DNA of 64,000 nucleotides from Candidatus Moraniibacteriota bacterium (GTDB lineage: Bacteria > Patescibacteriota > Minisyncoccia > Moranbacterales > UBA1568), in the NCBI GenBank assembly GCA_018061645.1, contig JAGOTT010000001.1, forward strand, positions 1,090-65,089. Direction: 5' to 3'. The notes under the pieces were generated by a model. The model saw nothing but the letters and a program-made list of their open reading frames with translations. It was not told the origin of the DNA and did no database searches. Numbering within the stretch: position 1 is the first letter of the stretch; every line of letters starts with the position of its first letter. The translations under genes and the position numbers were made by a program. This document shows positions 2,379 to 39,149 of this stretch, piece by piece.

Positions 2379-2493
2379 GTCATTGCGAGAGAGCGAAGTG
2401 ACCGTGGCAATCCAGAAAGCGAGCACCATTCCGAGTCCCGACCGTAACACTTCGTGTAGCGATCCGGGCAAGGAGTCTGCGAGTCGAGGAATC
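2379..2493. repeat. Composite of dispersed repeat families R2 (GTCATTGCGAG..AGCGAA, 2379-2398) and R1 (CCATTCCGAGT..GAGTCTGCGAGTCGAGGAATC, 2426-2493, interrupted by a 36-nt insert)
   Basis: R1 recurs nearly identically at 10561-10592 and, reverse-complemented, at 37846-37880. R2 recurs at 29828-29853 and, reverse-complemented, at 29878-29903. Confidence 0.6.
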
Positions 2494-2525
2494 CCGTCGA
2501 AAAAGGACTCTTGACTCGATATGGA

Positions 2526-2554
2526 TTGTCCGAAATTCGGAAAAGGAGTATACT
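2526..2554 (+). promoter_or_regulatory. Candidate sigma70-like promoter for the pilin operon (TTGTCC-17-TATACT)
   Basis: -35-like and -10-like hexamers with 17-nt spacer about 50 nt upstream of pilin 1. Strong RBS AGGAGG at 2592. Confidence 0.3.
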
Positions 2555-2603
2555 GGAGACGTCGGAACAAGAAATAAAAACATAAAAGGAAAGGAGGTGC
2601 GAT

Positions 2604-3032
2604 ATGGCAAAAAACATGAAAAAAGGATTTACCCTCATCGAACTTCTCATCGTCATCGCGATTATCGGTATTCTCGCGTCGATCGTGCTTGTGAGTCTCT
2701 CGAGTGCGCGTGAGAAGGCGAATATCGCCGCGTACAAGGCACAGGTGAGCTCTCTGAAAGCGGCAGTTCAAGTTGAATGCGACACGCAGGTTCTGGACTT
2801 CGCGAACGTAAATGCATTGAAAGCTGGTGCGGATCGGATAGCCGATCTCACGGACAACGCAGATATATCAACAGGAACCGCGGCGTCTGATTGCGGAACA
2901 ACCGGAAATGGATCATACGATATTGCTGTCGAATCCGTTGATCTTGGTGGTTCTGCTGCGGCTACGGCTTGTGAAACTGCAAATGGGACTCATATCCTTC
3001 AAACAGGTGCGACGTTCCCTGGCGGATGTTAG
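2604..3032 (+). CDS. Type IV major pilin, paralogue 1 (prepilin N-terminal cleavage/methylation domain)
   Basis: [26 protein letters not shown] class-III leader with G-1, F+1, E+5. Four Cys. C-terminal GC. Confidence 0.85.
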
Positions 3033-3057
3033 TCGATATTTACCCAATAAAAAAATT

Positions 3058-3501
3058 ATGAAAAAAGGATTTACCCTCATCGAACTTCTTATTGTCATCG
3101 CGATCATCGGTATTCTCGCGTCGATCGTGCTTGTGAGTCTCTCGAGTGCGCGTGAGAAGGCGAATGTCGCCTCTTTTAAAGCACAAGCGAGTTCTCTTAA
3201 TGCTGCTATCATGATAGCATGTGACGGTGCAGTGCTTTCAGGCGCCATTGTTGAAGCGCTGCTTCCGGCTGGTGGAGGAAAAATTGATGGAGGCGCCGCT
3301 TCGGCTGCCCACTCCGCGATAGTGGACGCTGATGTAACATTGGGAACACTTGCGGCAAACTGTGGTACCACTGGAAATGGCGCCTACACGGTAACCGTTC
3401 AGTCGGTAGATCTTGGATCATCTCCCGCGGCCGTTGCTTGTGAAGCAGTTGATAGCGTGACCCTCCAGCAAACTGGTGTAACGTTTGCAGCCGGATGCTA
3501 G
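3058..3501 (+). CDS. Type IV major pilin, paralogue 2
   Basis: Internal ATG at 3058 gives [36 protein letters not shown]. First 35 aa are identical to paralogue 1; C-terminal half is divergent. Four Cys, ends AGC. Confidence 0.85.
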
Positions 3502-3523
3502 CTCAGTATTTTCGGCCTCAGGA

Positions 3524-3557
3524 AAGACAGAAGCCAGAAATGGCTTCTGTCTTTTTA
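3524..3557 (+). terminator. Rho-independent terminator after pilin 2
   Basis: AAAGACAGAAGCC-AGAAAT-GGCTTCTGTCTTTTT: 11-bp stem plus T-run. Confidence 0.6.
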
Positions 3558-3609
3558 TCGGATAGTGTATACTTTCCTCAGTGGATGAAAATAAAAACAG
3601 CATGATGAT

Positions 3610-3996
3610 ATGAAAAGCATAAAAAAAGGATTTACCCTCATCGAACTTCTTATTGTCATCGCGATTATCGGTATTCTCGCCTCAATCGTGCTTGTGAGTC
3701 TCTCGAGTGCGCGTGAACGTGCCTACGTCGCAAAATTCAAATCCGTAATCCGATCGATACAGGTGCAGGCCGTTTCCGCGTGCGATGATGGAATTATCGA
3801 TTATACTGATATCACCGGATCGTTCGGGGATATCCCGGACGATACTATCGATGTGGCGGGCATCCAGGATAATGGGCAGTCCTGTGGATTGTCGAACATC
3901 CAGTCCTTTAGTGCCGATATTCCTTCCTCTAATCTTGATGTTTCGTGTACCGCTGTCATTGAAGAGACTGGTGTGACAAGCTTTTCCGGTTGTTAA
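3610..3996 (+). CDS. Type IV major pilin, paralogue 3
   Basis: [36 protein letters not shown]. Four Cys, ends SGC. Has its own upstream TATACT box. Confidence 0.85.
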
Positions 3997-4003
3997 ACTC
4001 TAT

Positions 4004-4336
4004 ATGAATTTGTTTTTGAAGCACGGAATACTTCTTTTTTCCGCAGTTCTTCTTGCTGTTTCCACCGTCCTTGTTCCGATCGTATTGGTTCACGATAAAG
4101 AGAGCGCTCGAGTGGTCTGGTATGGTTTCCCGTTCCAATTTATCGCTCAGGATTTTAGCGGTATCGCTGAGAAATCATTTTTTCCGAGATATATCGATTT
4201 TTTTGAGAATTGGGAAAATATTCGTATTGCGGATTATTCAGTGTGGAATTTTATTTTCTCATTATTCATATTTGCTGTTTTACTTGAGTCCACTATTTTA
4301 TTCTTGGAGTGGTTGAAGCGAGTCGTAAAAGGGTGA
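4004..4336 (+). CDS. Hypothetical small membrane protein (AT-rich gene)
   Basis: 110 aa with two hydrophobic segments. GC clearly lower than the neighbouring genes. Lies between pilin 3 and the pilD fragment. Confidence 0.4.
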   Translation: MNLFLKHGILLFSAVLLAVSTVLVPIVLVHDKESARVVWYGFPFQFIAQDFSGIAEKSFFPRYIDFFENWENIRIADYSVWNFIFSLFIFAVLLESTILFLEWLKRVVKG

Positions 4337-4340
4337 CCAC

Positions 4341-4478
4341 ATGATATTCCTTCTCTTCATCTTCGGGCTCGTACTCGGGAGCTTCCTCAATGTCATACTG
4401 TTCCGATTCGGAACGGGAAAGTTAGTGACTCGAATTGAACATGGATTTCTTGACATAATATCCAAATTAGTATATATT
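4341..4478 (+). pseudogene. Truncated 5' fragment of prepilin peptidase gene (duplicate of pilD start)
   Basis: 4341-4421 encodes MIFLLFIFGLVLGSFLNVILFRFGTG. This is about 88% identical at nucleotide level to pilD 5690-5770, then diverges into AT-rich sequence and stops at 4476. Confidence 0.6.
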
Positions 4479-4508
4479 TAGGTCATATTAATAACCTTTA
4501 TAGTACTT

Positions 4509-5636: not shown

Positions 5637-5689
5637 ATGTCGTATGCGCTGATGCGATCACTCCCTGTATTCCATGATACAATGTCCGC

Positions 5690-6481
5690 ATGGTATTCAT
5701 TCTCTTCATCTTCGGGCTCGTTCTCGGGAGTTTTCTCAATGTCGTGCTGTTCCGATTCGGAACGGGAGAAACGATGGTTTCGGGGCGGTCGCGGTGCAAC
5801 GCGTGTCGGGAGCCGATTGCGTGGTATGACAATATTCCGCTTCTCTCCTTTGTTTTTCTCCGTGGGAAGTGTCGGAAGTGCGGCGCGAAGATTTCTCTTC
5901 AATATCCGGCGGTCGAGCTTTCGACCGCGCTCCTGTTCGCGTTCGCAGGGGTGAGATTTTATGTGCCGGAAAGCGTGAATGCGGCGCTCGAGACGACTCT
6001 TGCATTGGGTCTTATCGCGACGCTCGTCGTCATCTTCGTCTACGACCTCCGGCACATGGAGATTCCCGTGTCCGCGCTCGGTTTCGGGATACTCTGGACA
6101 ATGTTCTCGCTTTTTTTCCTGTGGTGGCTCGCGTTGCCGCGGGAAGCGTTTCTCGATTCCCGGTTCTTCGACGGTCTGGTCGGCGGAGCGATCGCCTTTT
6201 CGCTCTTCTATGCGATCGTCTTTTTTTCGAAAGAGACATGGATGGGGGAGGGGGATGCATGGCTCGCGCTCCTTCTCGGCCTCGCCGTCGGATGGAAACT
6301 GCTCCTGCCTGCGCTCACGCTCGCGTTCGGGTCGGGGGCGATCGTCGGTATCGCGCTCATCGCGATGAAACGGAAGGAGATGCAAAGCCGGATTCCTTTC
6401 GGACCGTTCCTCGCAGCCTCCGTGCTTTTCATGTTGTTTTTTGGTACAATGGTGAAGCGATACTTTTTCTTCGGAATGTGA
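5690..6481 (+). CDS. pilD: Prepilin peptidase PilD (A24 family)
   Basis: 263 aa. N-terminal Zn-binding CNAC...CRKC. Multiple TM helices. Confidence 0.85.
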   Translation: MVFILFIFGLVLGSFLNVVLFRFGTGETMVSGRSRCNACREPIAWYDNIPLLSFVFLRGKCRKCGAKISLQYPAVELSTALLFAFAGVRFYVPESVNAALETTLALGLIATLVVIFVYDLRHMEIPVSALGFGILWTMFSLFFLWWLALPREAFLDSRFFDGLVGGAIAFSLFYAIVFFSKETWMGEGDAWLALLLGLAVGWKLLLPALTLAFGSGAIVGIALIAMKRKEMQSRIPFGPFLAASVLFMLFFGTMVKRYFFFGM

Positions 6482-7056
6482 ACGATCGAATCAGGAATCA
6501 GGAATCAGGAATCAGGAATCATGCTCGAAGGAGTAATGGATTCACGCTTGTCGAACTCGTGGTTTCCATGGCGATCCTTTCGACTATGGCGGCGGTGACC
6601 ATCATCTCGATGGGAGGATCGAAGACGAGGCAGGAGGTCGAAGGCGCGGCGCGCCAGCTTGCCGCAGCGATCCGCGAGACTCAGAATTATGCGCTTACCG
6701 GGAAGAATATCGGTGCGGCAGGGGACGTGCCGTGCCAGTTCCGCGTGAATGTGAATATCGGTACGTCGGTCTCCGATTTCACGGTGCAACAGATCAGGTT
6801 CGTATCCGGAACATGCGATACGAATTCTGGCGCACCGATGACGTATTCTCTTCCAAGCGGAGTCCAATTTTCCGCGGATGCCCATGTCAGGTTCGATGTC
6901 CCGCGCGGCGAACCGAAAAATTCCGCCGGAACGGAAATCGGTACTTCCGGAGTGACGCATGTGGATTTCTCGTTCGCGAAGAACGGTTCGACCGCGCATG
7001 TGTGCGTGTATCCGCTCGGACGGGTGGAAGAGAAAATCGGAGTGAATTGCATTTGA
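6478..7056 (+). CDS. Minor pilin / pseudopilin (GspH-like), GTG start overlapping the pilD stop (ATGTGA)
   Basis: Frame 1 has no in-frame ATG. GTG at 6478 gives MNDRIRNQESGIRNHARRSN|GFTLVELVVSMAIL, a basic leader followed by a canonical G/FTLVE site. The alternative ATG at 6521 is in another frame. Start remains uncertain. Confidence 0.5.
   Translation: MNDRIRNQESGIRNHARRSNGFTLVELVVSMAILSTMAAVTIISMGGSKTRQEVEGAARQLAAAIRETQNYALTGKNIGAAGDVPCQFRVNVNIGTSVSDFTVQQIRFVSGTCDTNSGAPMTYSLPSGVQFSADAHVRFDVPRGEPKNSAGTEIGTSGVTHVDFSFAKNGSTAHVCVYPLGRVEEKIGVNCI
6488..6520 (+). repeat. Heptanucleotide tandem repeat (GAATCAG) x4.7
   Basis: Direct reading: gaatcag gaatcag gaatcag gaatcag gaatc. Lies inside the predicted leader-peptide coding region of the next gene. 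Confidence 0.9.
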
Positions 7057-7073
7057 TTTTTCCGTAAAGCAAC

Positions 7074-8221: not shown

Positions 8222-10492
<2,271 letters not shown>

Positions 10493-10496
10493 ATTT

Positions 10497-10650
10497 CAAA
10501 GTTCAAATGTCAAATGACAAATCAAGCTCAAATGATAAAAATCCAAAAACGCCTCCGCTACCATTCCGAGTGAGTCTGCGAGTCGAGGAATCTTTTTTGG
10601 AATTTCGATTTAGGATTTGATTTGATATTTGAAATTTGAGTTTTGACATT
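10497..10650. repeat. Intergenic AT-rich inverted arrays of 7-mer units (TCAAATG-like, then CATTTGA-like) flanking an R1 repeat copy (10561-10592) and a T-run
   Basis: Left arm ttcaaag ttcaaat gtcaaat gacaaat. Right arm gatttga tttgata tttgaaa tttgagt, its approximate reverse complement. R1 and TTTTTT lie between. Confidence 0.55.
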
Positions 10651-11042: not shown

Positions 11043-12488
11043 ATGATAAGAGAGCTTCACGAACAACTCAAGAATAAGGAAATTTCCGCGGTTTCGCTTG
11101 CGGAGAAGCATCTTGCGATCATCAAGGAAAAGGATGACGAGTTCGGCGCGTTCCTTACGGTGCTTCCGGATGAGGCGCTTCGGGCGGCGCGGTTCGTCGA
11201 CGAGAAGATTGCGCGCGGCGAGCCAATCGGACCGCTTGAGGGGATTCCGGGGGCGGTGAAGGACAATATGTGTATGGAGGGGACGCGGACGACCGCCGCT
11301 TCGAAAATTCTCGATAGCTACATCGCGCCCTACGACGCGACTGCAGTCCGGAAGCTTAAGGAGTGCGGTGCGGTCATACTCGGAAAGACGAACATGGACG
11401 AATTCGCCATGGGGTCGTCGACCGAATCGAGCGCGTATCGGAAGACGAAAAATCCGGTCGATCCGGAGCGTGTTCCCGGTGGCTCGTCCGGTGGTTCGGC
11501 AGTCGCGGTCGCGGCGGATATGGCGGTCTTCGCGCTCGGGAGCGATACGGGTGGATCGATCCGCCAGCCGGCGTCGTTCTGCGGTGTGGTCGGGCTCAAA
11601 CCGACGTATGGACGCGTGTCACGGTACGGGTTGCTCGCGATGGCATCGTCGCTCGATCAGATCGGCCCCTTCGCCTCATCCGTCGAGGACGTGGCGATCG
11701 TCTTTTCGGAAATCTACGGATACGACGGAATGGACGTGACGACGGCGGAAAGCGAAGGAAAACGGTTCGAGGACGGCCTTACGGGCGATATACGGGGACT
11801 TCGCATCGGCGTACCGAAGGAATATTTTTCCGAGAATCTCGATGCGAAGGTGCGGACGGTCGCGGAGGCGGCACTCGAGCGGTTCAGGGAGCTCGGCGCG
11901 GAAATCGTCGACATATCCCTTCCGCACGCCAAATACGCGCTTCCGGCGTACTATATCATCATGCCTTCGGAAGTGAGCTCGAACCTCGCCCGGTTCGATG
12001 GGATAAAATACGGGCTCTCGATCAACGACCAGGCGGAGCGCGTCCCCGGGTCCGGAACGCTGCTTGAAACGTATCTCGACAGCCGAGGATACGGATTCGG
12101 CGATGAAGTGAAGCGGCGCATCATGCTCGGGACATACACGCTCTCCGCCGGGTACTATGATGCGTATTACAAGAAAGCGCAGGCAGTCCGGAAGCTCATC
12201 AAGAAGGATTTCTCCGACGCGTTCAAGGATGTCGATGTCATCTTTTCGCCGACGGCGCCGGAGCCGGCGTTCAAATTCGGAGCGAAGACGGACGATCCGC
12301 TCAAGATGTATCTCTCGGATATCTATACCGTGACGGCGAACCTTGCCGGTGTTCCGGCGATTTCGTTCCCGATCGGAACGATCGAGGAAGAAGGGAAGAA
12401 ACTTCCGCTCGGTGGCCACCTGATGGGAGAATGGTTCGACGAGGAGACGCTTCTCCGTGCGGCGGACGCCTATGAAAAATCAAAATGA
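11043..12488 (+). CDS. gatA: Asp/Glu-tRNA amidotransferase subunit A (amidase signature family)
   Basis: 481 aa. GGSSGGSAVAVAA amidase signature with Ser-cisSer-Lys triad context. Confidence 0.9.
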   Translation: MIRELHEQLKNKEISAVSLAEKHLAIIKEKDDEFGAFLTVLPDEALRAARFVDEKIARGEPIGPLEGIPGAVKDNMCMEGTRTTAASKILDSYIAPYDATAVRKLKECGAVILGKTNMDEFAMGSSTESSAYRKTKNPVDPERVPGGSSGGSAVAVAADMAVFALGSDTGGSIRQPASFCGVVGLKPTYGRVSRYGLLAMASSLDQIGPFASSVEDVAIVFSEIYGYDGMDVTTAESEGKRFEDGLTGDIRGLRIGVPKEYFSENLDAKVRTVAEAALERFRELGAEIVDISLPHAKYALPAYYIIMPSEVSSNLARFDGIKYGLSINDQAERVPGSGTLLETYLDSRGYGFGDEVKRRIMLGTYTLSAGYYDAYYKKAQAVRKLIKKDFSDAFKDVDVIFSPTAPEPAFKFGAKTDDPLKMYLSDIYTVTANLAGVPAISFPIGTIEEEGKKLPLGGHLMGEWFDEETLLRAADAYEKSK

Positions 12489-13980: not shown

Positions 13981-14074
13981 TCTTTCAGAATAACCAATAA
14001 CCAAGTGCCAATAACCAAGAAGACATTTTCCTGATTTGGATGTTGGATTTTGGTGATTGGTGATTCATACGAGT

Positions 14075-18005: not shown

Positions 18006-18990
18006 TCCATTCGATGCCAAGGCCGTTCCGCTCGAGGCGGCGGAGGAAGGTGAGTTGGCGTTTTGCGTAGTGTTTGGATTCCTTGAGGAGCTTCATTTCC
18101 ATGTCCTCGCGTGATATTTTCTCCTGGAGCAGGCGGGTGCACCACCGGTATTCGAGACCAAATCCTTCGAGTCTTTTCCAGGAAACGCCTTCGTTGTGGA
18201 GGCGTTTTACTTCTTCTACCATACCTTGTTTAAGCCTTTCTTTGAGTCTTTTTTCGATGCGGGCGTGAAGGATTTCCTTCGGGGGATTGAGAGCGATGAT
18301 ATGAATTTTGTCATCGCGAGTTTTTTGATTCTTATCAAAAGACGTGGCGATCCAGGAATTTCTGGATTGTTTCGTCGAAGACTCCTCGCAATGACGGCCG
18401 AGAGAGGGAACCTTTCCCAGAGTTTCTATGATTTCCAAGGCGCGGATGAGGCGGACCTTGTTTTTCGCGTCGATATTGGCGGTGCGCTCGTGGTCCTTTT
18501 CTTGGAGCATTTTGAACAATGTTTCGACGGAGAGCTTGCTGAGTTTCGCACGGAGCGCTTTGTCCGGTTTCACTTCGGGGAATGACGTGCCGAGGAGGAG
18601 TGCCTCGACCCAGAAAGTCGTGCCGCCACAGAGAATCGGAACCTTGCCGCGCTTCTCGATATCGGTGATCGCCTTTTTCGCGTCGCGGAGAAAGTGTGTG
18701 ACATTGTACTCGCGCTTCGGGCTCGCCACATCGAGCAGGTGATGCCGGATGCCTTCGGAAAAAAATAAGTCTTTATCCCGCCGTTTGGTATTTGTAATTT
18801 GTAATTTGTAATTTCCGGAAAAATCCCTCGGGATTTTTCCGGTACCTATATCCATTCCTCTGTACACCTGTCGTGAGTCGACGGAGATGATTTCGCTGTC
18901 AACCTCCCGCGCGAGCCGTATCGCGTAGTCGGATTTTCCGGAAGAAGTAGGACCAAGTACCGCGATCAATTTTTTTGAAGAGGTTTGCAT
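17986..18990 (-). CDS. miaA: tRNA dimethylallyltransferase MiaA
   Basis: Internal Met start MQTSSKKLIAVLGPTSSGKS (P-loop). Contains an in-frame (TTTGTAA)x3 tract at 18791-18811 encoding GNYKLQITNTK. Confidence 0.85.
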   Translation of the reverse strand: MQTSSKKLIAVLGPTSSGKSDYAIRLAREVDSEIISVDSRQVYRGMDIGTGKIPRDFSGNYKLQITNTKRRDKDLFFSEGIRHHLLDVASPKREYNVTHFLRDAKKAITDIEKRGKVPILCGGTTFWVEALLLGTSFPEVKPDKALRAKLSKLSVETLFKMLQEKDHERTANIDAKNKVRLIRALEIIETLGKVPSLGRHCEESSTKQSRNSWIATSFDKNQKTRDDKIHIIALNPPKEILHARIEKRLKERLKQGMVEEVKRLHNEGVSWKRLEGFGLEYRWCTRLLQEKISREDMEMKLLKESKHYAKRQLTFLRRLERNGLGIEWITKASL

Positions 18991-18994
18991 GCTT

Positions 18995-19130
18995 GGAAAG
19001 CACAAAATTACAAAACACAAAAATCCAAACAAATCACAACTTTCAAAACACAAACTCGATTTTTCTGCGTTTGTATTTTGTGATTTGTGCGCTGTGTTTT
19101 GTTTGGATTTTTGTGCTCTGAGCTTTGTGT
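18995..19130. repeat. Intergenic inverted array (CACAAAAATCCAAACAAA.. / ..TTTGTTTGGATTTTTGTG), roughly 50-bp imperfect arms
   Basis: Arm 19000-19050 versus 19085-19128, approximately reverse-complementary. AT-rich A/C-only, then T/G-only composition. Confidence 0.5.
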
Positions 19131-19132
19131 TT

Positions 19133-22100
19133 TCATGACGCTATTCGTTCCACTCCCTCGATATCCTTCAGGCGTTCCAATAGCGCATCATCGGGGCTGA
19201 CGGAAAACGATGTCCGTATTTTCGTGTCGTCGACGGAGACGAAGATTCTTGTGTCACCCGTCGGGGCATTCTTCAATATTTCGGAGATTTTGTCTATGGC
19301 TCCCGGTCCCTTTTCCGTATCAAGGAAAATCGTCATGATTTTTTCCGTTTGGCTTTCGATGTACTGTTTTTTGTTGACTGCTGGCTGCTGACTGTTTTTT
19401 CGCATCGCTTGCGCGTTCCGGAACCGGTTCACGTCCTCTTCGGAAAGTGGCGTGACGGAATCGGTGATGACTTTCGCTTCGCCGTCGCGACGGGAGATCT
19501 TTCCGTCCACGATGACGATACCGCCCTCCTTCCAGAATGCCTCGGTCTTTTCCGCGATGCGGGGAAAGATGACGAGCTCCGTCCGCCCCGTCAGATCCTC
19601 GAGCCCGATGAAGAACATCGGCGCTCCGTTTTTCGAGATGATTTTTTTTACGGTCGCGATGACGCCGCCGAGTCGCACCGATATCTCGTCGTCCTGGTTC
19701 GCGATTTCGCGGATCGGCAGGGTCGTTTCGGCGAGATAGGAGGCGTATCCGGAGAGCGGATGATCGGAGACATAGAGTCCGAGAAGCTCCTTCTCCCAGT
19801 CGAGCCGCGCCTTTTTCGTCGCCGGAATCGCCGGTTCGAGACGCACCTTCGGTTTTTCGAGCGAGAGTTCGCCGAAGAGGCTCACCGCGTGCGTTTCGCG
19901 GACTTTCTCGACGTTCTTGGAGAAGTAGAGGATATTGTCGAGGTTCGCGAGAAAGAGGCCGCGCTCACCGAACAGGTCGAGCGCGCCGACTTTCGCGAGC
20001 GCCTCGAGTGATTTCTTGTTGAGATCCTTCGTGCGGACGCGTTCGAGGAAATCCTCGAGATCGCGGTATCGCCCACCGGCTTTCCGCTCGCGGACGATCT
20101 CTTCCGCGGCGGGACGACCGACGTTCTTGATCGCGTTCAATCCGAAGCGGATGCGTTCCTTCCCGGCATCATCCGGGATGACGGCGAAATCCTCGAAACT
20201 TTCGTCGACGGAGGGCGGGAGGGTTTCGATGCCCATCTCCTTCGCCTCGGTCAATTCGATGGCGATGCGGTCGGTATCGTGTTGGTCGCTCGTGAGGAGT
20301 GCCGCCATAAATTCCGCCGGGTAGTGCGCCTTGAGATAGGCGGTCTGGTAACCGATGAGAGCATAGCAGGCGGCGTGGGATCGGTTGAACCCGTATCCGG
20401 CGAACGGTTCGATGAAGTCGAAGACCTTTTCCGCGACCTTCTGCGCGACACCCTCGCCCACGGCGCGGTCGATGAACTTGATGCGCTGTTCGGCGATGAG
20501 TTCCTTGATCTTCTTGCCCATCGCCTTGCGGAGCACGTCCGCTTCGCCGAGGGAGAACCCGGCGAGGTCGCGTGCGATCTGCATGACCTGCTCCTGGTAG
20601 ACGGCGACGCCGTAGGTGTTGCGGAGGATCGGCTCGAGTTTCGGATGGAGATATTTTACCGTCTTGCGGCCGTGCTTGCCGTCGATGAAGTCCGGGATCC
20701 AGTCCATCGGACCCGGGCGGTAGAGGGCGACCATCGCGATGATGTCCTCGAAGACGGTCGGCTGGAGCTGTTTCAGGTACCGTTTCATGCCGTTCGATTC
20801 AAGCTGGAAGACGCCGGTCGTCTTGGCTTCCTGGAGGAGACGATAGGTGTTCGGATCGTCAAGCGGGATGCGGTCGAGAACGTCGGACGGGGAGGCGTCT
20901 CCCGGGAGACCGAGCCGTTCCGCCAGTCCCGGGAACTTGCCGAGTGCGCGGATGATCCGGATCGCGTTCTGCATGATGGTGAGGTTCTTGAGTCCCAGGA
21001 AGTCCATCTTGAGGAGACCGATCTTCTCGACGACGCTCATTTTGGTCGACGAGGCATACTGCGTCACCATGCCGTCCCCGTGGCCGGAGACGTGCTGGAG
21101 GGGCGAGTAGGCAACGACGGGGTCCTTGGTCACGACGACGCCGCAGGCGTGGACGGAGGCGTGGCGCGCGTTGCCTTCGAGCTTTTTCGCGGTGTCGATG
21201 ATACGCTTCGCGTCCTTGTTCTCCTCGTAGAGTTTCTTGAGCTCCTGAACCTCCTCGACGGCTTTTTCGAGCGAGGTGAACATCGGGATCATCTTCGAGA
21301 TCTGGTCGCAGAAGGAATAGGGGAACCCGAGCGCGCGACCGGTGTCGCGGATCGCCGCTTTCGCCGCCATAGTCCCGAAGGTGATGATCTGCGCGACATG
21401 GTCCGCGCCGTATTTCTGCCGCACATAATCGAGCACGTCGTCGCGGCGGTCGTCGGCGAAGTCCATGTCGACGTCCGGCATGGAGATGCGTTCGGGATTC
21501 AGGAACCGCTCGAAGAGGAGGTCGTAGGCGATCGGGTCGAGGTTCGTGATTCCGGTGAGGTAGGCGACGAGCGATCCGGCCGCCGAGCCGCGGCCGGGAC
21601 CGACGACGACGCCGTTGTTCTTCGCCCAGTTCACGAAGTCCGCGACGATGAGGAAGTACGACGCGAAGCCGGTCGTCCTGATGACGTCGAGCTCATAGTC
21701 GAGGCGCTTCCGATACCCTTCATTGACAGAGGTGTTCCCGAAGCGTCGCGTGAGTCCCTTCTCGCAGAGCGTCCGCAGGTATTCCTCGGCGGAGAGTCCG
21801 TCCGGCACGTCGAAATGCGGAAGCTGTGTTTCGCCGAGATGGATCTCGACATTGCATCTATCGGCGATTTTCTTCGTGTTCTCTATGGCTCCGGGGAAAT
21901 CCTTGAAGAGCCGCTCCATCTCTTCGGGAGAGCGGAAGGAAAGGTCGAGATGCGTGAGTCGCGGGCGTCCCTCCTGCTCGACTGTCCAGTTGTTCTGAAT
22001 GCATATGAGGATATCATGCGTGTCGCGATCCTCCGGATGGAGGTAAAAGACATCGGCTGCGGCGACGAGGGGGATGCCGGTCTCCAGGCTCATCTCCCGG

Positions 22101-22684
22101 AGATTGCCGTTGATGTTGGCCTGGTTCTCGTATTCGATGTTCGGTCCGACCTCGAGATAGAAGCGGTCTTTTCCGAATATCTCCTGGTATTCGAGAGCGG
22201 TAGCTTTCGCGGCTTCGTAATTATCGTAGATGAGGTTCGCGGGGATCTCGCCGGTCATGTTTCCGGAAAGCGCAATCAGTCCCTCGTGGTGGAGTCTGAG
22301 AAGATTGCGGTCGATGCGCGCTTTGTAGTAGAATCCGTCGAGCTGGGCCTTGGACACGAGCTGCAGCAGGTTTTTGTACCCCGTCTCGTTTTCTGCGAGG
22401 AGAACGATGGTGTGCCGCGGACGGTCGTCCATCGACGACGTCTTGCTCGTGTGATCCTTCACGATATGGAGCTCGACACCGATGATCGGTTTCAGCCCCG
22501 CATACTTCGCCTTGATATAGAGCTCGACCGAACCGTACATGTTCGATGTGTCCGTGAGCGCGAGTGATGTCATCCCGTGCTTCTTCGCTTCGGCGACGAG
22601 GTCGTCAATCTTCGGAAGCGCGTTCAGGAGAGAATAGTGGCTGTGGACGTGGAGATGGACGAAAGGCATAAATCCAAATGTCAA
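19133..22684 (-). CDS. dnaE: DNA polymerase III alpha subunit DnaE
   Basis: 1183 aa. N-terminal PHP domain (HLHVHSHYSLL), polymerase core, OB domain. Confidence 0.95.
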   Translation of the reverse strand: MTFGFMPFVHLHVHSHYSLLNALPKIDDLVAEAKKHGMTSLALTDTSNMYGSVELYIKAKYAGLKPIIGVELHIVKDHTSKTSSMDDRPRHTIVLLAENETGYKNLLQLVSKAQLDGFYYKARIDRNLLRLHHEGLIALSGNMTGEIPANLIYDNYEAAKATALEYQEIFGKDRFYLEVGPNIEYENQANINGNLREMSLETGIPLVAAADVFYLHPEDRDTHDILICIQNNWTVEQEGRPRLTHLDLSFRSPEEMERLFKDFPGAIENTKKIADRCNVEIHLGETQLPHFDVPDGLSAEEYLRTLCEKGLTRRFGNTSVNEGYRKRLDYELDVIRTTGFASYFLIVADFVNWAKNNGVVVGPGRGSAAGSLVAYLTGITNLDPIAYDLLFERFLNPERISMPDVDMDFADDRRDDVLDYVRQKYGADHVAQIITFGTMAAKAAIRDTGRALGFPYSFCDQISKMIPMFTSLEKAVEEVQELKKLYEENKDAKRIIDTAKKLEGNARHASVHACGVVVTKDPVVAYSPLQHVSGHGDGMVTQYASSTKMSVVEKIGLLKMDFLGLKNLTIMQNAIRIIRALGKFPGLAERLGLPGDASPSDVLDRIPLDDPNTYRLLQEAKTTGVFQLESNGMKRYLKQLQPTVFEDIIAMVALYRPGPMDWIPDFIDGKHGRKTVKYLHPKLEPILRNTYGVAVYQEQVMQIARDLAGFSLGEADVLRKAMGKKIKELIAEQRIKFIDRAVGEGVAQKVAEKVFDFIEPFAGYGFNRSHAACYALIGYQTAYLKAHYPAEFMAALLTSDQHDTDRIAIELTEAKEMGIETLPPSVDESFEDFAVIPDDAGKERIRFGLNAIKNVGRPAAEEIVRERKAGGRYRDLEDFLERVRTKDLNKKSLEALAKVGALDLFGERGLFLANLDNILYFSKNVEKVRETHAVSLFGELSLEKPKVRLEPAIPATKKARLDWEKELLGLYVSDHPLSGYASYLAETTLPIREIANQDDEISVRLGGVIATVKKIISKNGAPMFFIGLEDLTGRTELVIFPRIAEKTEAFWKEGGIVIVDGKISRRDGEAKVITDSVTPLSEEDVNRFRNAQAMRKNSQQPAVNKKQYIESQTEKIMTIFLDTEKGPGAIDKISEILKNAPTGDTRIFVSVDDTKIRTSFSVSPDDALLERLKDIEGVERIAS

Positions 22685-22924
22685 ATATCAAATGTCAAAT
22701 CAAACTCAAATGTCGAAAACTCAAAATAAAAACCGCGCCGGAATGACGATGCGGAATTTGAAATTTGGCATTTGAAATTTGGCATTGTCTTGAGACTTCC
22801 TCCATATCCCGGCTCGCGCCTCGGGTTCTGCGGGGAAGGAATCTGATATGCCCCCAGTATATCGCCAACACGAGAAAAATGAAAGCCCGCCTCCGGTGTT
22901 CCGGATGGCGGGATGTGTTTCGGT

Positions 22925-23200: not shown

Positions 23201-23911
23201 ATGCAAGAGCTGACATTCGATCGGGAGCGTGCGTACGAGGAAGCAGGCTTCGACGTGGTTGTCGGGGTCGACGAGGCGGGTCGCGGTCCTTTGGCTGGTT
23301 CTGTCGTTGCGGCTGCGGCAGCGTTGCGACAAGGAGCAATGAACGGGGAACAGGGAACAACAGATGGGGAGGAGAAAGAATGGAAATTGATTCGGGACTC
23401 GAAGACCTTGTCCGAGAAGCAGCGGGACCGAGCATTCGAGTTCGTCCATGAAAAATTCTTTGTCGGAGTCGGCATCGTGCACGCCGAGACGATCGATCGG
23501 ATCAATATACTCGAAGCGACGTTTCTGGCGATGAAATCAGCTCTTTCGGAGCTGAAGATACAGGATACAGGATATAAGATGCAAAAGACCATCGTATTGG
23601 TGGATGGGAATATGACGATACCGAATCTCTCGCTTCCGCAGGAGGCTGTCGTCGGAGGCGATGGAATCGTCCGTTCGATCGCGGCGGCGTCGATCATTGC
23701 CAAAGTGACGCGGGATAGGATGATGCTCGAGTATGACAAAGAGTATCCTCTGTACGGATTCGCGCAGCACAAGGGATACGGGACGAAGGGGCATATGGAC
23801 GCGTTGCGGAAGCATGGGGCATGTCCGATCCATCGGATGAGCTTCAAGCCGGTCTTCTACTCGATCCCCGAGAATGTGAATCGGAACCTGCTTTCAAGAA
23901 AGAGGAAGTAA
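23201..23911 (+). CDS. rnhB: Ribonuclease HII
   Basis: VVVGVDEAGRGPLAGSVVAAAA... DGN. Contains in-frame heptamer tracts at 23346-23359 and 23555-23582. Confidence 0.9.
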   Translation: MQELTFDRERAYEEAGFDVVVGVDEAGRGPLAGSVVAAAAALRQGAMNGEQGTTDGEEKEWKLIRDSKTLSEKQRDRAFEFVHEKFFVGVGIVHAETIDRINILEATFLAMKSALSELKIQDTGYKMQKTIVLVDGNMTIPNLSLPQEAVVGGDGIVRSIAAASIIAKVTRDRMMLEYDKEYPLYGFAQHKGYGTKGHMDALRKHGACPIHRMSFKPVFYSIPENVNRNLLSRKRK

Positions 23912-29704: not shown

Positions 29705-29795
29705 AAGGGCTACAATAGAATATTCCGCAGACATGAGGCGATCCGAAAGGAGAGAAGTCCTCACGAGGAAATGTCGCTCCGAAAGGAGTTTTCTT

Positions 29796-29827
29796 GTCTG
29801 CGGGTTTCCGCAGACTTTTTGTTTTTT
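29796..29827 (+). terminator. Rho-independent terminator after rpsP
   Basis: GTCTGCGG-GTTT-CCGCAGAC followed by TTTTTGTTTTTT. Confidence 0.65.
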
Positions 29828-29903
29828 GTCATTGCGAGCGTAGCGAAACAATCAGGAAATCGTTTCTGGCATGTATGGATTGTCGCGCTTCGCTCGCAAT
29901 GAC
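29828..29903. repeat. R2-family inverted repeat (26-bp arms GTCATTGCGAGCGTAGCGAAACAATC / GATTGTCGCGCTTCGCTCGCAATGAC, 24-nt spacer)
   Basis: Arms are imperfectly reverse-complementary. Shares GTCATTGCGAG..AGCGAA with 2379-2398. Lies upstream of rplJ. Confidence 0.6.
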
Positions 29904-29962
29904 GGACTTCAGGAAAACAGGTCGATCCTGAAGCTGAGATTTATAGGTATCGATTCAAAAGT

Positions 29963-30481
29963 ATGATGAAACGGGCAGAAAAAGACGTCCTGATCAAGGA
30001 AGTCGCGGAGAGCGCGAAGGAAGCGAAAGCGCTCGTATTCTCGGATTTCAAGGGGGTGTCGGTGAAGGATATCTCCGCGATCCGTGGCGAGCTTCGGAAG
30101 AGCGGATCCCGGTTCCAGGTGCTGAAGAAGACGCTTCTTAACATCGCGCTTCGCGACGCGGGAATCGCGGTCGACGCGCGAAAACTCGAGGGGCAGGTCG
30201 GTGTCGCGTTTTCCACCGACGAAGTGTCGGCGGCGAAGGTGATCGCAGACTACATCAAGGCGAACAAGGATCTGAAACTGTCGATCGTCGGTGGCGCACT
30301 CGAGGGGAAGGCACTCTCGGCGGACGAGGTAAAGGCGCTCGCGAAGCTCCCGTCGAAAGACGAACTCCGCGGCATCCTCGCCGGGACGCTCCAGGCGCCG
30401 ATTGCCGGGTTCGTCCGGGCACTGTCCGGAAACCTTTCCGGATTGGTGCGGGTTCTCTCCGCGGTGGCGGAGAAAAAATAG
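29963..30481 (+). CDS. rplJ: 50S ribosomal protein L10
   Basis: 172 aa, L10 fold pattern, followed by rplL. Confidence 0.85.
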   Translation: MMKRAEKDVLIKEVAESAKEAKALVFSDFKGVSVKDISAIRGELRKSGSRFQVLKKTLLNIALRDAGIAVDARKLEGQVGVAFSTDEVSAAKVIADYIKANKDLKLSIVGGALEGKALSADEVKALAKLPSKDELRGILAGTLQAPIAGFVRALSGNLSGLVRVLSAVAEKK

Positions 30482-30646
30482 GACTTTCACATTTGCGCAT
30501 TTCTTCGTTGCAAGCTCCGGTGCTCGACACCGTATGTCACATACGGTTTACTCCGCTCCTCACTTGCACCTCGAACTTGCACTCAAATGCGTAAGTCCTA
30601 AAAAGCAGCTCTATTGGTTTATCAATAAGCAGTTAATGTCAACGTT

Positions 30647-35274: not shown

Positions 35275-35293
35275 ATAGCGACAAGCTCATCAA

Positions 35294-35716: not shown

Positions 35717-35802
35717 AATATCTCAATTATTTTTTTCAGTATGACAGAATTGGAGAAAACAAAAAAGACCCCTTACGGGGTCTTTTTTGTTCCTGGCCTT
35801 GA

Positions 35803-36000
35803 TTAGGCGCGGGAGACGTTCGTGGCGGACGGTCCCTTCTCCCCTTCGACGATTTCGAAAGAAACGGTATCGCCAACCTTGAGCTCGTCATACGTCACAC
35901 CGACGAGTTCCTTCGCATGGAAGAAAAGATCCTTCTCCTGTCCCTCGACGGCGATGAATCCGAACCCGCGATCCGTGAGCGTTTTGATGCTACCGGTCAT
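35803..36000 (-). CDS. cspA: Cold-shock protein CspA family
   Basis: 65 aa. GSIKTLTDRGFGFI RNP1 and FFHAKEL RNP2. Confidence 0.9.
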   Translation of the reverse strand: MTGSIKTLTDRGFGFIAVEGQEKDLFFHAKELVGVTYDELKVGDTVSFEIVEGEKGPSATNVSRA

Positions 36001-36153
36001 AGTGTTCTGCTTAGTGCTGCTTAGTTGCTACTTCGAAGAAATCCGACTACATTTCCCAAGTACGCTCCATATTGTAGCGCAATTTTCCGGTTCTGTCAAT
36101 ACGCAGCCAGTGAAAGAGAAAAGAGGCTCGAAAGAGCCTCTTTTCTATTCCTG

Positions 36154-36582
36154 TTATTTGGTGTCAGTCCATTCGCCTGAGTCCTTGTCGTAATGCGATA
36201 GGGTTTTTCCTCCTACGCATATGCCATCATCGATCGAGCCGAGAAAATACGCGACATCGATCAGGGTTGTGGTTGTTTTTGTTTCCTGATAGATTCCTGC
36301 TCGTCGATATGAGACGATGGCCGCGTCACCTTTTTCGTCTACCGTGACGACTTCATGCAGATAAACGCCATTTTCATCTTCAAGCGTCCTAAGCGCCTCC
36401 GGATTCTCCTGGCCGCTCAATCTTTCGATTTGCAATCTGATTTCTTCCAGGGACGGGAAATGTGTTTCCTGTTCGGCTGTCGGTATCGAATCCGCTTCCT
36501 GCTTCTGGGTCTGGCTCGGAAACTCGTGCATAGGGATTGGCTTATGGTTTTTACTGGGGAGGATGGGATCGAACCATCGCAT
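36154..36582 (-). CDS. Hypothetical protein (AT-rich gene downstream of tRNA-Gln)
   Basis: Start placed at MRWFD... to avoid overlap with the tRNA. No motif. Confidence 0.35.
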   Translation of the reverse strand: MRWFDPILPSKNHKPIPMHEFPSQTQKQEADSIPTAEQETHFPSLEEIRLQIERLSGQENPEALRTLEDENGVYLHEVVTVDEKGDAAIVSYRRAGIYQETKTTTTLIDVAYFLGSIDDGICVGGKTLSHYDKDSGEWTDTK

Positions 36583-36595
36583 GATTTGATATATG

Positions 36596-36667
36596 TTGCC
36601 CGGGCAGGATTCGGACCTGCGCATAGCGGAGTCAAAGTCCGCTGCCTTACCGCTTGGCTACCGGGCA
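36596..36667 (-). tRNA. tRNA-Gln (anticodon UUG)
   Basis: Cloverleaf read by hand: acceptor UGCCCGG/CCGGGCA, D-arm GCCAAGCGGUAAGGC, anticodon stem GCGGA/UCCGC with loop CUUUGAC, T-arm GCAGG-UCCGAAU-CCUGC. Discriminator A; CCA not encoded. Confidence 0.8.
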
Positions 36668-36676
36668 ATAATCAGT

Positions 36677-37360
36677 TTACGTTTCTATTTTCAGACTTTC
36701 GAGAATTCCCAGAACCCACCCTGAGATTTTCCTGTTCAGGTCCGTGCTGTTTCTTACATCTATGCGGAGTAGCCCGTGATAATCTTCGCTGTAGTTTTTC
36801 ATTTTCGTTTTCGGGTTGTGCGTTTTGAGATATACCTGCTTTATATCAGTCCTGACCAGATTACTCCAAAATTTCCGTGCGGATTCGATGTCAGCGGATC
36901 GATGAATGTAGATACTGTAATGCAGATCTTCCTTTTCTTTTCCGCAGATTTCTTGGAGCCAACGGTCGAAGAGGAGAATCATTCTTGGGTCGGAATTATT
37001 AAAGGTCGTTCGCTGGGAAACGTTGTGTTTCTTCTGCTTGCTGCCTTCCGCCCAGTAGAGCGCGATTCCGATGAGCCACAGCTCTTTCTTCGAGATGCTC
37101 TTTATTTCCTTCTTCGCTGACTCGATGGTGAGCCGCTCTCGCGCGATCCTTGCATTGCGACAAGACTCTTGTGCTTTGACTTGAGCGGCTTTTCTTTTGA
37201 GTGTGAGCCGTTGCCGTTGCTTTTTAGCGAGACCTATATCTTTTAGCCAGACGGAAAGTGTCGATTTTGCGATCGGTACTTCACGGAGGATCTCGTTATA
37301 AGACAGCCCTCGCTTTCGAAGGCTGATGGCGGCTTTTTTCTCACTTTCTTTTTTTGTCAT
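36677..37360 (-). CDS. HTH-domain protein with LAGLIDADG-like motif (possible homing-endonuclease-like / mobile-element protein)
   Basis: 227 aa, AT-rich. N-terminal resolvase-type HTH (ISLRKRGLSYNEILREVPIAKSTLSVWLK). Central LWLIGIALYWAEGSK resembles a LAGLIDADG block. Directly abuts tRNA-Gln. Confidence 0.4.
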   Translation of the reverse strand: MTKKESEKKAAISLRKRGLSYNEILREVPIAKSTLSVWLKDIGLAKKQRQRLTLKRKAAQVKAQESCRNARIARERLTIESAKKEIKSISKKELWLIGIALYWAEGSKQKKHNVSQRTTFNNSDPRMILLFDRWLQEICGKEKEDLHYSIYIHRSADIESARKFWSNLVRTDIKQVYLKTHNPKTKMKNYSEDYHGLLRIDVRNSTDLNRKISGWVLGILESLKIET

Positions 37361-37442
37361 GGAACTACAGTTAGTATATATGTAAATTATAACTGTAGTT
37401 CGGTCAAATTGTCAAAATGCAGCTTCAATCGAAAATCTGCGA

Positions 37443-39149
37443 TTACACCACACTTCCGCCGAAGGCGGCGAGGGCTTGGGAGATGAGGGGATTCCCGGGC
37501 TTTTCGTCCGGCTCGGCGACGACGACTGCAACCTTGGTTCTCGCGGAGAGAATGGTATCAAAAGCCTGAACAAGGGTCAATTGTGCCTTCGGTTCGGCGA
37601 GGCGATCCTTGTGGAAGGGAAACCTCACGGCGATCGTTATCTTGTTCCCCTCGGATTTTGCGGGGCGGGCGTTCGTGAGCGCGAGAGTGAGCGACGCGTT
37701 GATTTTTGTCGCTTCGCGGATGATATCGCGCCAGCGGTCTTTCACATCCTCGAAGGAGAAAGTGGCGGGCGTGGTATCTTTGGAATCTTCCTGCGCCGTT
37801 TCGATTGTGGTTTCTTCTGCTTTGTTTGTCACTTCGTCTGACCTCGGGATTCCTCGACTTGCAGACTCACTCGGAATGACAGTCGTGGTATCTTCAGTTT
37901 TTTCCGAATCTTGTTTCTTGTTTCTTGTTTCTTGAACCCCTTGTTTCTTGTCGCTTGTGTCTTGTATCTTTTCTTCCGTTTTTGATTCAGATTTTTTTGG
38001 CTCTGTGGATTTCGGTCCGGCAGTTTTTTCGGGTTCTTGTATCTTGTATCTTGTATCTTGTATCTTATCCATCATCGCTTTCACCGTCGCGATTTCGATC
38101 GGGAGTTCGGGGATGGAGGAATTCTTCAACTGCTCCGCCGCGACCGAGAAGAGCTCGATGATGCGGACGGCTTCGGTCGGGGAGAAGGAAGCGGCGAGCG
38201 CGAGGGTCGATGTGCGCTGCTCGTCGGTGAAGGATTCGAGGTCAGATGTAGCCGCTTTCTTGTCGATTGCGGCGAGGAGGATGACGCGGAGGTAACGGAG
38301 AAGCGAAGGAACGAACGCAGAAAAATTCTCACCGCGGTCGGAGAGTTCGCGGAGGTAGGCGAGCGCCTCGGGGAGGTCGTTCCCGCCGAGGAGTCGGGTG
38401 AACTGTTCGAGTTTCTCATGGCTCGTCACGCCGAGGATCGCCGCCGCATCCTCTTCGGTGATCGGGCTTTCCTGGAGGGTGGCGACCGCCGTGAAGAGCG
38501 ACTCGGCGTCGCGCATGCCGCCTTCGGCCGAGAGCGCGATGAGTCGGAGCGCCTCGGGCTGGATCTTGAGTTTCTCGCTCTTCGCGATCAGCTCCAGTTT
38601 CTCGATGATCTTCGCGACCGGGAAACGCGAAAGGTCGAATCGCTGGCATCGTGAAACGATGGTTTCCGGAACCTTGTGGAGCGCGGTGGTCGCAAGGATG
38701 AAGATCGCATGCGCCGGTGGCTCCTCAAGCGTTTTCAGAAAGGCGTTCCAAGCGCCGGGAGAGAGCATGTGCGCCTCGTCGATGATATAGATGCGGTAGG
38801 GACCGGATGCGGGCGGAGTCGGGACGCCTTCGAGGATTTCTCGCATCTTATCGACCTGGGTGTGGGTCGCGGCGTCGAATTCGATGAGATCCATCGAACG
38901 ACCATTCTGGATGGTCTTACAATTCTCGCATTTTCCGCAAGGCTCGGCGCCCTTGCGATCCTGACAGTTCGCCGCTTTCGCGAGGAGTCGCGCGAGTGTG
39001 GTTTTGCCGGTGCCGCGTGGTCCGGTGAAGAGATAGGCGTGGCTCAGTTTTCCGGTCTTGAGAGCGTTCTCCAGTGTCCGGACGATGTGTTCCTGGCCGA
39101 TGACCTCGGCGAAGGTCGATGGACGGTATGTACGGTAGAAAGCGGGCAT
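37443..39149 (-). CDS. dnaX: DNA polymerase III subunit gamma/tau DnaX with repeat-built low-complexity linker
   Basis: N-terminal AAA+ (LFTGPRGTGKTTLARLLA, CxxC Zn module). The linker contains heptamer tracts (38036-38063 TTGTATCx4; 37910-37936 CTTGTTTx3) and an in-frame R1 copy (37846-37880). Confidence 0.9.
   Translation of the reverse strand: MPAFYRTYRPSTFAEVIGQEHIVRTLENALKTGKLSHAYLFTGPRGTGKTTLARLLAKAANCQDRKGAEPCGKCENCKTIQNGRSMDLIEFDAATHTQVDKMREILEGVPTPPASGPYRIYIIDEAHMLSPGAWNAFLKTLEEPPAHAIFILATTALHKVPETIVSRCQRFDLSRFPVAKIIEKLELIAKSEKLKIQPEALRLIALSAEGGMRDAESLFTAVATLQESPITEEDAAAILGVTSHEKLEQFTRLLGGNDLPEALAYLRELSDRGENFSAFVPSLLRYLRVILLAAIDKKAATSDLESFTDEQRTSTLALAASFSPTEAVRIIELFSVAAEQLKNSSIPELPIEIATVKAMMDKIQDTRYKIQEPEKTAGPKSTEPKKSESKTEEKIQDTSDKKQGVQETRNKKQDSEKTEDTTTVIPSESASRGIPRSDEVTNKAEETTIETAQEDSKDTTPATFSFEDVKDRWRDIIREATKINASLTLALTNARPAKSEGNKITIAVRFPFHKDRLAEPKAQLTLVQAFDTILSARTKVAVVVAEPDEKPGNPLISQALAAFGGSVV

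Follow-up and report, generated by a model that had tools for sequence, protein, structure and literature searches.

The 64-kb window considered here, to which all bare coordinates refer, is part of a metagenome-assembled genome (MAG) of Candidatus Moranbacteria, a lineage of the candidate phyla radiation (CPR)/Patescibacteria, and it carries two short dispersed repeats, R1 and R2. Both are built of two conserved boxes, GTCATT[S]CGAG and GA(A/G)G[S']AATCC, on either side of a variable mini-hairpin. R1 is the version in which S is C (ATTCC...GGAAT, the C-type), and R2 is the one in which S is G (ATTGC...GCAAT, the G-type). The window contains eight such units at five loci, in the form of two inverted doublets (in miaA and between rpsP and rplJ) and four single units, two of which are adjacent in direct orientation. 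Three of the five loci are intergenic, and two lie within coding sequence. A covariance model trained on 116 units, window copies excluded, recovers six of the window units at E values of 1.8e-6 to 3.5e-4. The copy at 10562-10595 scores E 0.26 because its 5' end reads ACC in place of GTC, and no further window match falls below E 1. Metagenome contigs and relatives fetched for comparison carry L numbers (L001, L125, L186, and so on).

Between pilC and the pilin genes, an R2-type singlet without box mismatches (GTCATTGCGAG-AGAGCGAAGTGACC-GTG-GCAATCC; 2379..2413, + strand; E 4.7e-5) begins 5 nt past the stop codon of pilC (T2SSF). The next unit is of the R1 type, ACCATTCCGAG...GAGGAATCC (2425..2494, +), and is interrupted by a 36-nt hairpin module, R3 (2437..2472, +); positions 2473-2496 are 96% complementary to the copy in dnaX. 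In the ligA-gatC spacer, R1 begins 68 nt past the ligA stop and belongs to a 43-nt inserted segment (10550..10592, +) made up of CGCCTCCGCTAC and the R1 unit at 10561-10592. It occupies the apex of an AT-rich palindrome that two inverted heptamer arrays make up, (AATGTCA)n at 10492..10522 as the left arm and (ATTTGAA)n at 10620..10650 as the right. The rpsP-rplJ inverted doublet (29826..29905) begins 10 nt past a terminator-like hairpin and 124 nt past the rpsP stop; its arms (29828-29853, 29878-29903; E 3.5e-4 and 1.1e-5) are 26 nt long, 88% complementary, and 24 nt apart.

The two remaining loci are translated. The dnaX unit (GTCATTCCGAG-TGAGTCTGCAAGTC-GAG-GAATCC; 37845..37882, −; E 3.6e-5) lies in frame in the linker of the 568-aa DnaX open reading frame (ORF; 37443..39149, −), where it encodes ...TVIPSESASRGIPRSDEVT... 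(linker peptide VIPSESASRGIP). Inside the miaA ORF is a degenerate inverted doublet (18308-18397). Its arm B consists of GTCATCGCGAG, a 23-nt AT-rich hairpin, and GTG-GCGATCC (18308..18355, +; E 1e-4), and its arm A, in the region of the IPPT domain, reads GTCATTGCGAG-GAGTCTTCGAC-GAA-ACAATCC (18362..18397, −; E 1.8e-6). Both arms are translated, as ...GRHCEESSTKQSRNSWIATSFDKNQKTRDDK..., and the doublet adds about 19 residues, in a surface segment, relative to MiaA structure 2qgn. The original prediction, which was made from the letters of the window, had overlooked this locus. The other copies it named all proved real: the R1 copy that is in frame in dnaX, the split R1 copy near pilC, and R2 at 2379 with its inverted pair at 29828-29903. 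A single detail changed, since the reverse-complement match of R1 in dnaX (37848-37879) has two mismatches and not one.

With only two full R1 copies and a split one in 64 kb, the likeness could in principle be chance or one local duplication within the contig, but this has next to no probability. None of 100 shuffles gave any match to the 32-nt R1 of the kind seen at 37848-37879. The shared prefix CATTSCGAG occurs 7 times in the window versus 2.1 expected, a number that 0 of 100 shuffles reached. Orthologous and additional copies are present in independent assemblies, and the R1-specific 21-mer occurs in a single GTDB representative genome, a Saccharibacteria MAG, where it makes up half of a doublet that separates serS from murF. 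The single local duplication without further copies, against which the original prediction had set itself, is thus not what is found; the family is present in many genomes.

The window copies, together with 109 doublets from IMG/VR contigs, yield the unit consensus 5'-GTC ATTSC GA G[X]C GAA GS'AAT CC-3', with a length of about 26-45 nt. The unit folds into a rod on one strand. It has a proximal stem of 5 bp (ATTSC/GS'AAT), a conserved, purine-rich internal loop with GA opposite GAA, and a distal hairpin that is free in sequence and length and often shows tandem G.A pairs on either side of a GNA triloop. Some units stand alone, and others form inverted doublets with a variable spacer between the arms. 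R1 and R2, which had been suspected of being one family, are subfamilies of one hairpin-forming family: they have the same boxes, and the sole position at which these differ (G/C) is always complemented. In 1.2 Mb of loci, fetched without using the boxes, the S/S' combinations were G:C 15, C:G 6, A:T 1, and T:G 2 (orthologous dnaX units in both cases); a non-complementary combination was never seen. This census is the unbiased evidence for the S:S' pair because complementarity at the S column was a selection requirement for the 116-unit set. Compensated variants of the proximal stem also occur, with ATCGC/GCGAT in arm B of the miaA doublet (18310) and ATCCC/GGGAT at L125:2865. The interior, X, can be as short as 4 nt or exceed 40 nt, and it nearly always forms a hairpin; examples are GCGAAGC, GGCCCTTGGGGCC, GGGACAAAGTCCC, AAATTATGTACTCATAATTT, and TCCCGATTTATCGGGA, and the commonest forms are GCGAAGC, GCGTAGC, and GCGCAGC. 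Since an R1-like interior, CGAGTCTGCAAGC, is found between G-type boxes in L186, the interiors of R1 and R2 are interchangeable.

Covariation supports the fold. In the class with a 12-nt interior (47 distinct units), double-sided changes occur at all four distal pairs, in 28 cells compared to 6.1 in shuffles, and none of 500 shuffles was as high. Across the 116 units, 86% of the cells are paired versus 76% when shuffled and 20-49% in slid controls, and double-sided changes number 72 against 23 expected (0 of 500 shuffles). Both stems covary, so the units share the short imperfect palindromic hairpin of repetitive extragenic palindromes (REPs) and their doublets (REPINs) as well as the compensatory changes of the small dispersed repeats (SDRs) of cyanobacteria. 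Among the non-canonical cells of the stems, G.A/A.G pairs number 111 and C.T/T.C pairs 5; therefore, the fold belongs to the GTCATT strand only.

This strand bias bears on the reading of the units as duplex-DNA sites for a chromosome-level protein, of the nucleoid, segregation, or uptake-sequence type, with the palindromy reflecting the binding of a dimer. The boxes are conserved across phyla, the doublets are palindromic, and pili genes flank one copy; Patescibacteria encode DNA-uptake machinery. Nevertheless, duplex sites are very improbable, since the covariation of a distal hairpin of free sequence and the 111:5 excess make sense only for a single strand. The interior of 4 to more than 40 nt also argues against them, and a density of one unit per 3-50 kb combined with identity across phyla is unlike species-specific uptake sequences. 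By inspection only, three candidate motifs were set aside: DNA uptake sequences, for their density and host range; the hammerhead or hairpin ribozyme, as the CUGAUGA core is absent; and the kink-turn, as the register of the G.A pairs is incompatible.

On another reading, the units are cis-acting RNA elements (terminators, stabilizers of mRNA 3' ends, or a protein-binding RNA motif) that the host keeps where they are useful. Three loci lie just downstream of genes, and the unpaired nucleotides are conserved while the stems covary, as in functional RNAs. The window also has, at 29707-29830 (+), a sub-threshold match to the ribosomal protein L10 leader RF00557 (32 bits versus a gathering score of 44, E 9e-4), which ends in the terminator-like hairpin at 29796-29815; the R2 doublet sits between this leader and rplJ, and its arms are identical in the window and L001. 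However, singlets have no orientation bias relative to the flanking genes, copies are in frame in dnaX, miaA, and an FG-GAP gene, and relatives differ in presence or absence at the same spacer. No unit scores as an intrinsic terminator, and none has a terminator-like stem followed by a T-run. Rfam 15 gives no family match to the units at gathering or E-value thresholds, the only matches in the window being tRNA and the sub-threshold L10 leader. An RNA role is thus unlikely as the primary explanation. The habitat claimed by the original prediction, right after stop codons or terminators, holds for three of the five loci and fails for the two in coding sequence.

The history of the loci can be read from relatives. 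The pilC-pilin spacer of L186 lacks about 120 nt bearing the R2 singlet and the R1 copy. At ligA-gatC, L185 (79% LigA identity) and L186 (72%) keep the heptamer palindrome and lack the 43-nt segment 10550-10592. Since these relatives lack them, the copies at the two loci are insertions. The 10562 and 2425 copies are each other's closest relatives, sharing the derived 5' ACC and the interior GAGTCTGCGAGTC. In the rplJ-rplL spacer, L183 carries a C-type doublet, and the window and L001 carry an unrelated 115-nt palindrome instead, which adds to the picture of gains and losses at fixed spacers. This imperfect palindrome (30480-30598; RNA minimum free energy [MFE] −41.5 kcal/mol), common to the window and L001, has no second copy in any fetched sequence.

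The dnaX copy has orthologs in four relatives, L001, L002, L182, and L183, whose DnaX proteins are 84-92% identical, and is absent from homologs at 74% identity or less. In L002, 12 internal nucleotides are deleted, leaving GTCATTCCGAGTGA^AGGAATC, and in L001 and L182, substitutions have accumulated; this copy is old and, in some relatives, decaying. Its interior (GAGTCTGCAAGTC) is nearer to those of its window paralogs (GAGTCTGCGAGTC) than to those of its orthologs (GAGTCTTCGAATC), which suggests either gene conversion or descent of the paralogs from the dnaX copy. The recent mobility once proposed from the near-identity of the copies does not hold for the dnaX copy. As for coding sequence in general, a canonical G-type unit has stops in only one of its six reading frames, and therefore in-frame insertion is tolerable. 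A third intragenic case comes from L186, where an R2 doublet (19062-19167) lies inside a called gene for a 615-aa FG-GAP repeat protein (18623-20470).

The rpsP-rplJ doublet behaves differently. It is orthologous in the window, L001, and L183, with the site kept and the interior replaced. The window and L001 have almost the same flanks and arms, but their central spacers differ at 10 of 15 positions, and in L183, the interior is about 20 nt longer in both arms. The change is the replacement of a segment and not point mutation.

The 36-nt insert in the R1 unit near pilC is a repeat in its own right. Its homolog in the Patescibacteria contig L125, CCCGCCTGTAACGCTTCGCGTAGCGATGCGGGCAGG, matches the window R3 at 29 of 36 nt; by our arithmetic, a match of this quality should occur about 3e-5 times in the sequence searched. 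The L125 copy shows a compensatory change, ACAC/GTGT to ACGC/GCGT, and is inserted precisely within a (TCGTAAT)n heptamer array. In viral contigs, the only match to the R3 core pattern is an unrelated coding sequence.

Heptamer arrays are a recurring neighbor. The window has about 20 tandem period-7 arrays, with a different heptamer in each, including those at 6488-6521, 8638-8672, 9037-9069, 10030-10058, 10492-10522, 10620-10650, 13989-14018, 18790-18814, 22675-22700, 22755-22786, 23341-23359, 23557-23574, 37909-37970, 38035-38066, and 39156-39188. Period-7 arrays are frequent in further Patescibacteria loci too. The array (TCTTGTT)n at 37909..37970, 27 nt from the dnaX unit, is translated in the DnaX linker; two of the five window loci are at least this near to a heptamer array (P about 0.026). 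Other arrays are translated in frame in LigA (including IPNSKFQIP), MiaA (NYKLQITNTK), and DnaX (including QETRNKKQ), and at one array site in the dnaX linker, the heptamer differs among relatives (CAAGAAA, CAGGATA, CAGGAAT).

Beyond the window, a search of 1.13 Mb of LigA-anchored sequence with the covariance model gave 33 units, clustered in a handful of Patescibacteria contigs (L125 has 8 and L186 has 6). Many of these units are also in the training set, and therefore only the counts are informative. A metagenome scan with LigA returned only relatives at 59% identity or less, which served as unbiased sequence and not for the mapping of empty sites. The density, 8 units per 64 kb in the window, rises to 8 per 22 kb in L125, and doublets are carried by L101, L105, L125, and L186. 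In plasmids, the canonical R2 doublet occurs in six genera from three phyla or classes: Novosphingobium, Methylobacterium, Methylosinus, Legionella, Aulosira, and Calothrix. It is found at 40 or more places in one replicon of Novosphingobium, and in Aulosira, it forms the center of a larger inverted-repeat element. A C-type doublet gave only chance-level matches in plasmids. One family is thus common to Proteobacteria, cyanobacteria, and the ultra-small Moranbacteria genome studied here.

In IMG/VR, 92 contigs have the doublet pattern, 63 a unit with a 12-nt interior (partly the same contigs), and 6 a C-type unit, for a union of about 150 contigs. The doublet pattern has 22 fixed bases and so should match by chance less than once per 1e11 bases, by our arithmetic. 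Most of these matches appear to lie in host-like, high-GC regions. When the genes neighboring 98 viral-contig copies were clustered, they turned out to be structural genes like those of phages or gene transfer agents (GTAs), with no recurrent transposase. The family gives spurious small ORFs in annotation, and the peptides ...SLRGAKRRSNP... and ...LLRFARNDE... were encountered around the viral-contig copies. Among open-access papers searched by sequence string, the box strings occur only as primers, no paper contains two or more of them, and no description of the family or of its mobilizer was found. In two contigs, L056 (3000-3450; a high-GC contig) and L093 (4400-4810), R2 doublets and another palindromic repeat, CATCCTTCGAGGCTCGCTGCGCTCGC...CAGGATGAG, follow each other by turns in a tandem series with a period of about 156 nt, a cluster like a bacterial interspersed mosaic element (BIME).

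One way in which such units could move is as true REP/REPIN elements, mobilized by a REP-associated tyrosine transposase (RAYT; TnpA_REP, a Y1 HUH transposase) encoded elsewhere in each genome. The imperfect palindromes, the inverted doublets with variable spacers, the singlet remnants, and the mosaic clusters of L056 all match the REPIN description of Bertels & Rainey 2011 (PMC3116915), which was used for the comparison of architecture. Inverted doublets with a spacer, alongside singlets, are seen in the window, in 92 IMG/VR contigs, and in L101, L105, L125, and L186. Like REPs, BIMEs, and REPINs, including the palindromic units (PU)/BIMEs of Escherichia coli, the units belong among 20-60 nt imperfect palindromes that occur as singlets and as inverted doublets forming long hairpins, join tandem mosaic clusters with other repeats, appear to be mostly intergenic, and persist long within lineages. 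REPs are extragenic and reach hundreds of copies per genome; of the window loci, three of five are intergenic. Y1/RAYT-like genes exist in the Patescibacteria-like contigs L126 and L121 as well.

Other features of the units differ from those of REPs, and membership in the REP-RAYT system is not established, because a 5' GTAG is absent and flanking of RAYT genes was not found. GTAG-type REPs flank RAYT genes, and a conserved tetranucleotide, 5' GT(A/G)G, is reportedly found next to the REP palindrome (Nunvar 2010 and Ton-Hoang 2012); the units here start with GTCA. At six RAYT-like loci (Gloeocapsa, Kovacikia, a Chloroflexota plasmid, L096, L126, and L121), the flanks hold other hairpins, several of which start with GTAG (Gloeocapsa, Kovacikia, Chloroflexota), and never the GTCATTSCGAG boxes. 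A tblastn search with E. coli RayT (E<=1e-3; plasmids only) found homologs in 32 plasmids, and the R2-bearing replicons of five genera (Novosphingobium, Methylobacterium, Methylosinus, Aulosira, and Calothrix) had no match. REP sequences are usually particular to a genus, whereas here the same boxes recur in different phyla; the distal hairpin here is modular and of free sequence, and two of the five window loci are coding. With RAYT as the mobilizer supported neither by the RayT search nor by the flanks of the six homologs, true REP/REPIN status is doubtful. The transposase genes of L126 (about 6134-6532) and L121 (about 11751-12092), which are of the Y1/RAYT type and lie on low-GC contigs, have hairpins of their own on both sides (TGTCAAAGACnGTCTTTGACA and AATGTCAAGGTTsAACCTTGACATT) and represent a REP-like system separate from R1 and R2.

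Another comparison is with the Nostocaceae. Elhai et al. (2008, Genome Res 18:1484) reportedly described small dispersed repeats (SDR1-8) in Nostoc that are embedded in heptamer arrays and minitransposons. These SDRs, of 21-27 nt, reportedly form hairpins backed by compensatory changes, nest as modules, and vary in presence or absence between relatives. The likeness is close, as R1 lies between inverted heptamer arrays, R3 within (TCGTAAT)n, and the Aulosira doublet within a larger element, so that embedding in heptamer repeats or larger elements is seen here too; the heptamer arrays of the window resemble the short tandemly repeated repetitive (STRR) sequences of cyanobacteria. In architecture and behavior, the family works like REP/REPIN elements and even more closely like the Nostoc SDRs as they are reported. 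The differences are the hosts, a Patescibacterium and also Proteobacteria, and the size of the units, 26-45 nt compared to 21-27 nt. SDRs and heptameric repeats (STRRs) of Nostocaceae are mentioned in PMC5861425 and PMC4390886.

Three further systems invite comparison. As in-frame palindromic repeats translated into an extra surface or linker peptide (in dnaX, miaA, and the FG-GAP gene of L186), the units recall the Rickettsia palindromic elements (RPEs). According to Ogata et al. (2000, Science 290:347), RPEs are reportedly 100-150 bp long, confined to Rickettsia, and found in frame in coding genes, including essential ones. The units here, compared by size and host, are 26-70 nt (doublets about 60-100 nt) and mostly intergenic. 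Miniature inverted-repeat transposable elements (MITEs; Correia/NEMIS, ERIC, BOX, RUP) are likewise non-autonomous, dispersed, hairpin-forming, and polymorphic for presence or absence, but the family is several-fold smaller, and neither terminal inverted repeats matching a parent insertion sequence (IS) nor a target-site duplication was detected. The MITE/REP-like label of the original prediction therefore survives for the dispersed, insertional, REP-like architecture, while hallmarks of MITEs were not found and those of REP-RAYT were absent where they could be looked for. Finally, d(GCGAAGC)-type mini-hairpins with GNA triloops are, according to Hirao and co-workers, said to be exceptionally stable in DNA. 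They are a structural motif and not an element family, yet the commonest interiors are exactly that motif, a hint that it is as DNA that the fold is read.

R1, R2, and the nested R3 are thus probably small non-autonomous insertion modules, that is, selfish DNA of the REP/REPIN and SDR kind. Copies entered intergenic spacers, the apex of a heptamer palindrome, and the inside of a further unit; two more went in frame into coding sequence, at the DnaX linker and a surface segment of MiaA. Once inserted, copies persist for long, decay by point changes and internal deletion, and have their interiors swapped. A trans-acting enzyme would recognize the GTCATT strand as single-stranded DNA, a proposal made because the unpaired bases are conserved and the fold is strand specific. 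This enzyme, whether HUH/Y1-like or of another type, may be encoded at another place in the genome or by a donor. Gene conversion may homogenize the copies.

Several observations weigh against selfish insertion modules. No mobilizing enzyme was found among the RAYT-like loci, the R2-bearing plasmids, or the viral-contig neighbors. No target-site duplication is visible at the ligA-gatC and pilC-pilin junctions, where the empty-site relatives are too diverged (72-79% LigA identity) to fix exact termini. The sample behind the lack of orientation bias, about 5 sense and 5 antisense singlets relative to the flanking genes, is small, and its gene calls are crude. Selfish REPs do not usually have the same boxes in different phyla, and this conservation may instead speak for a role in the host. 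By nearest-neighbor MFE, single units fold no better than shuffles (z +0.7 to −1.5), so the case for structure rests on covariation; the interior alone gives a weak result (p 0.03). In the RNA folding that had been proposed as a check, the doublet at 29826-29905 gave z −6.5 and −5.8. It should be kept in mind that nearest-neighbor rules give no score to 2-bp GNA-triloop hairpins or to tandem G.A pairs.

A broader and less probable reading is that a whole class of modular single-strand insertion elements, marked by the boxes GTCATTSCGAG...GARGS'AATCC, spans several phyla and is shared by Alphaproteobacteria, Legionella, Nostocales, and Patescibacteria. These elements would travel with heptamer arrays, nest into hairpin apices, and owe their movement to an enzyme that is widely distributed and differs from the canonical RAYTs. 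If this is true, the SDR/STRR system, thought to be peculiar to the Nostocaceae, would be general among bacteria and of ancient origin, and in reduced CPR genomes it would also remodel essential proteins.

The kind of element, REP- or SDR-like selfish DNA, is already familiar. What is new is a family with testable anatomy that is spread over at least three bacterial phyla, and its interest lies in the cross-phylum boxes, the lack of a known mobilizer, the presence alongside heptamer arrays in a CPR genome, and the replacement of interiors at a fixed site. In a CPR genome of roughly the 1-Mb class, streamlining would be expected, yet selfish hairpin modules and heptamer arrays are tolerated and kept. 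Because repeats and arrays sit inside dnaX, ligA, and miaA, part of the variation in CPR protein length is repeat derived. The search for the mobilizer by phylogenetic profiling is well posed, given the identity of the boxes in different phyla, the strand-specific fold, and the failure to find an association with RAYT. The replacement of an interior at a fixed site between near-identical relatives is a case of unexplained local hypervariability.

Some other features of the window deserve mention. Directly downstream of the pilC-proximal cluster are three tandem pilin paralogs (2604-3996), which start MKKGFTLIE... (N_methyl motif) and whose 156-nt 5' regions are 76-89% identical. Next to tRNA-Gln (36595-36667, −) is a 227-aa ORF (36677-37360, −) with an N-terminal helix-turn-helix (HTH)-like segment, the motif ...ALYWAEGSK..., and no Pfam match. 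It is present in L001 and absent from the corresponding position in L183 and L182, a gene-sized indel, and from its sequence, it may be a homing-endonuclease-like gene. Further along, a coding repeat is present eight or nine times at 50200-53067, spaced at 230-530 nt and in most cases at about 260-290 nt; its conserved core, GGCAACGTCGGTATCGGGACGACAAGTCC, is translated as GNVGIGTTSP, and the product is probably a repeat-domain surface or fiber-like protein.

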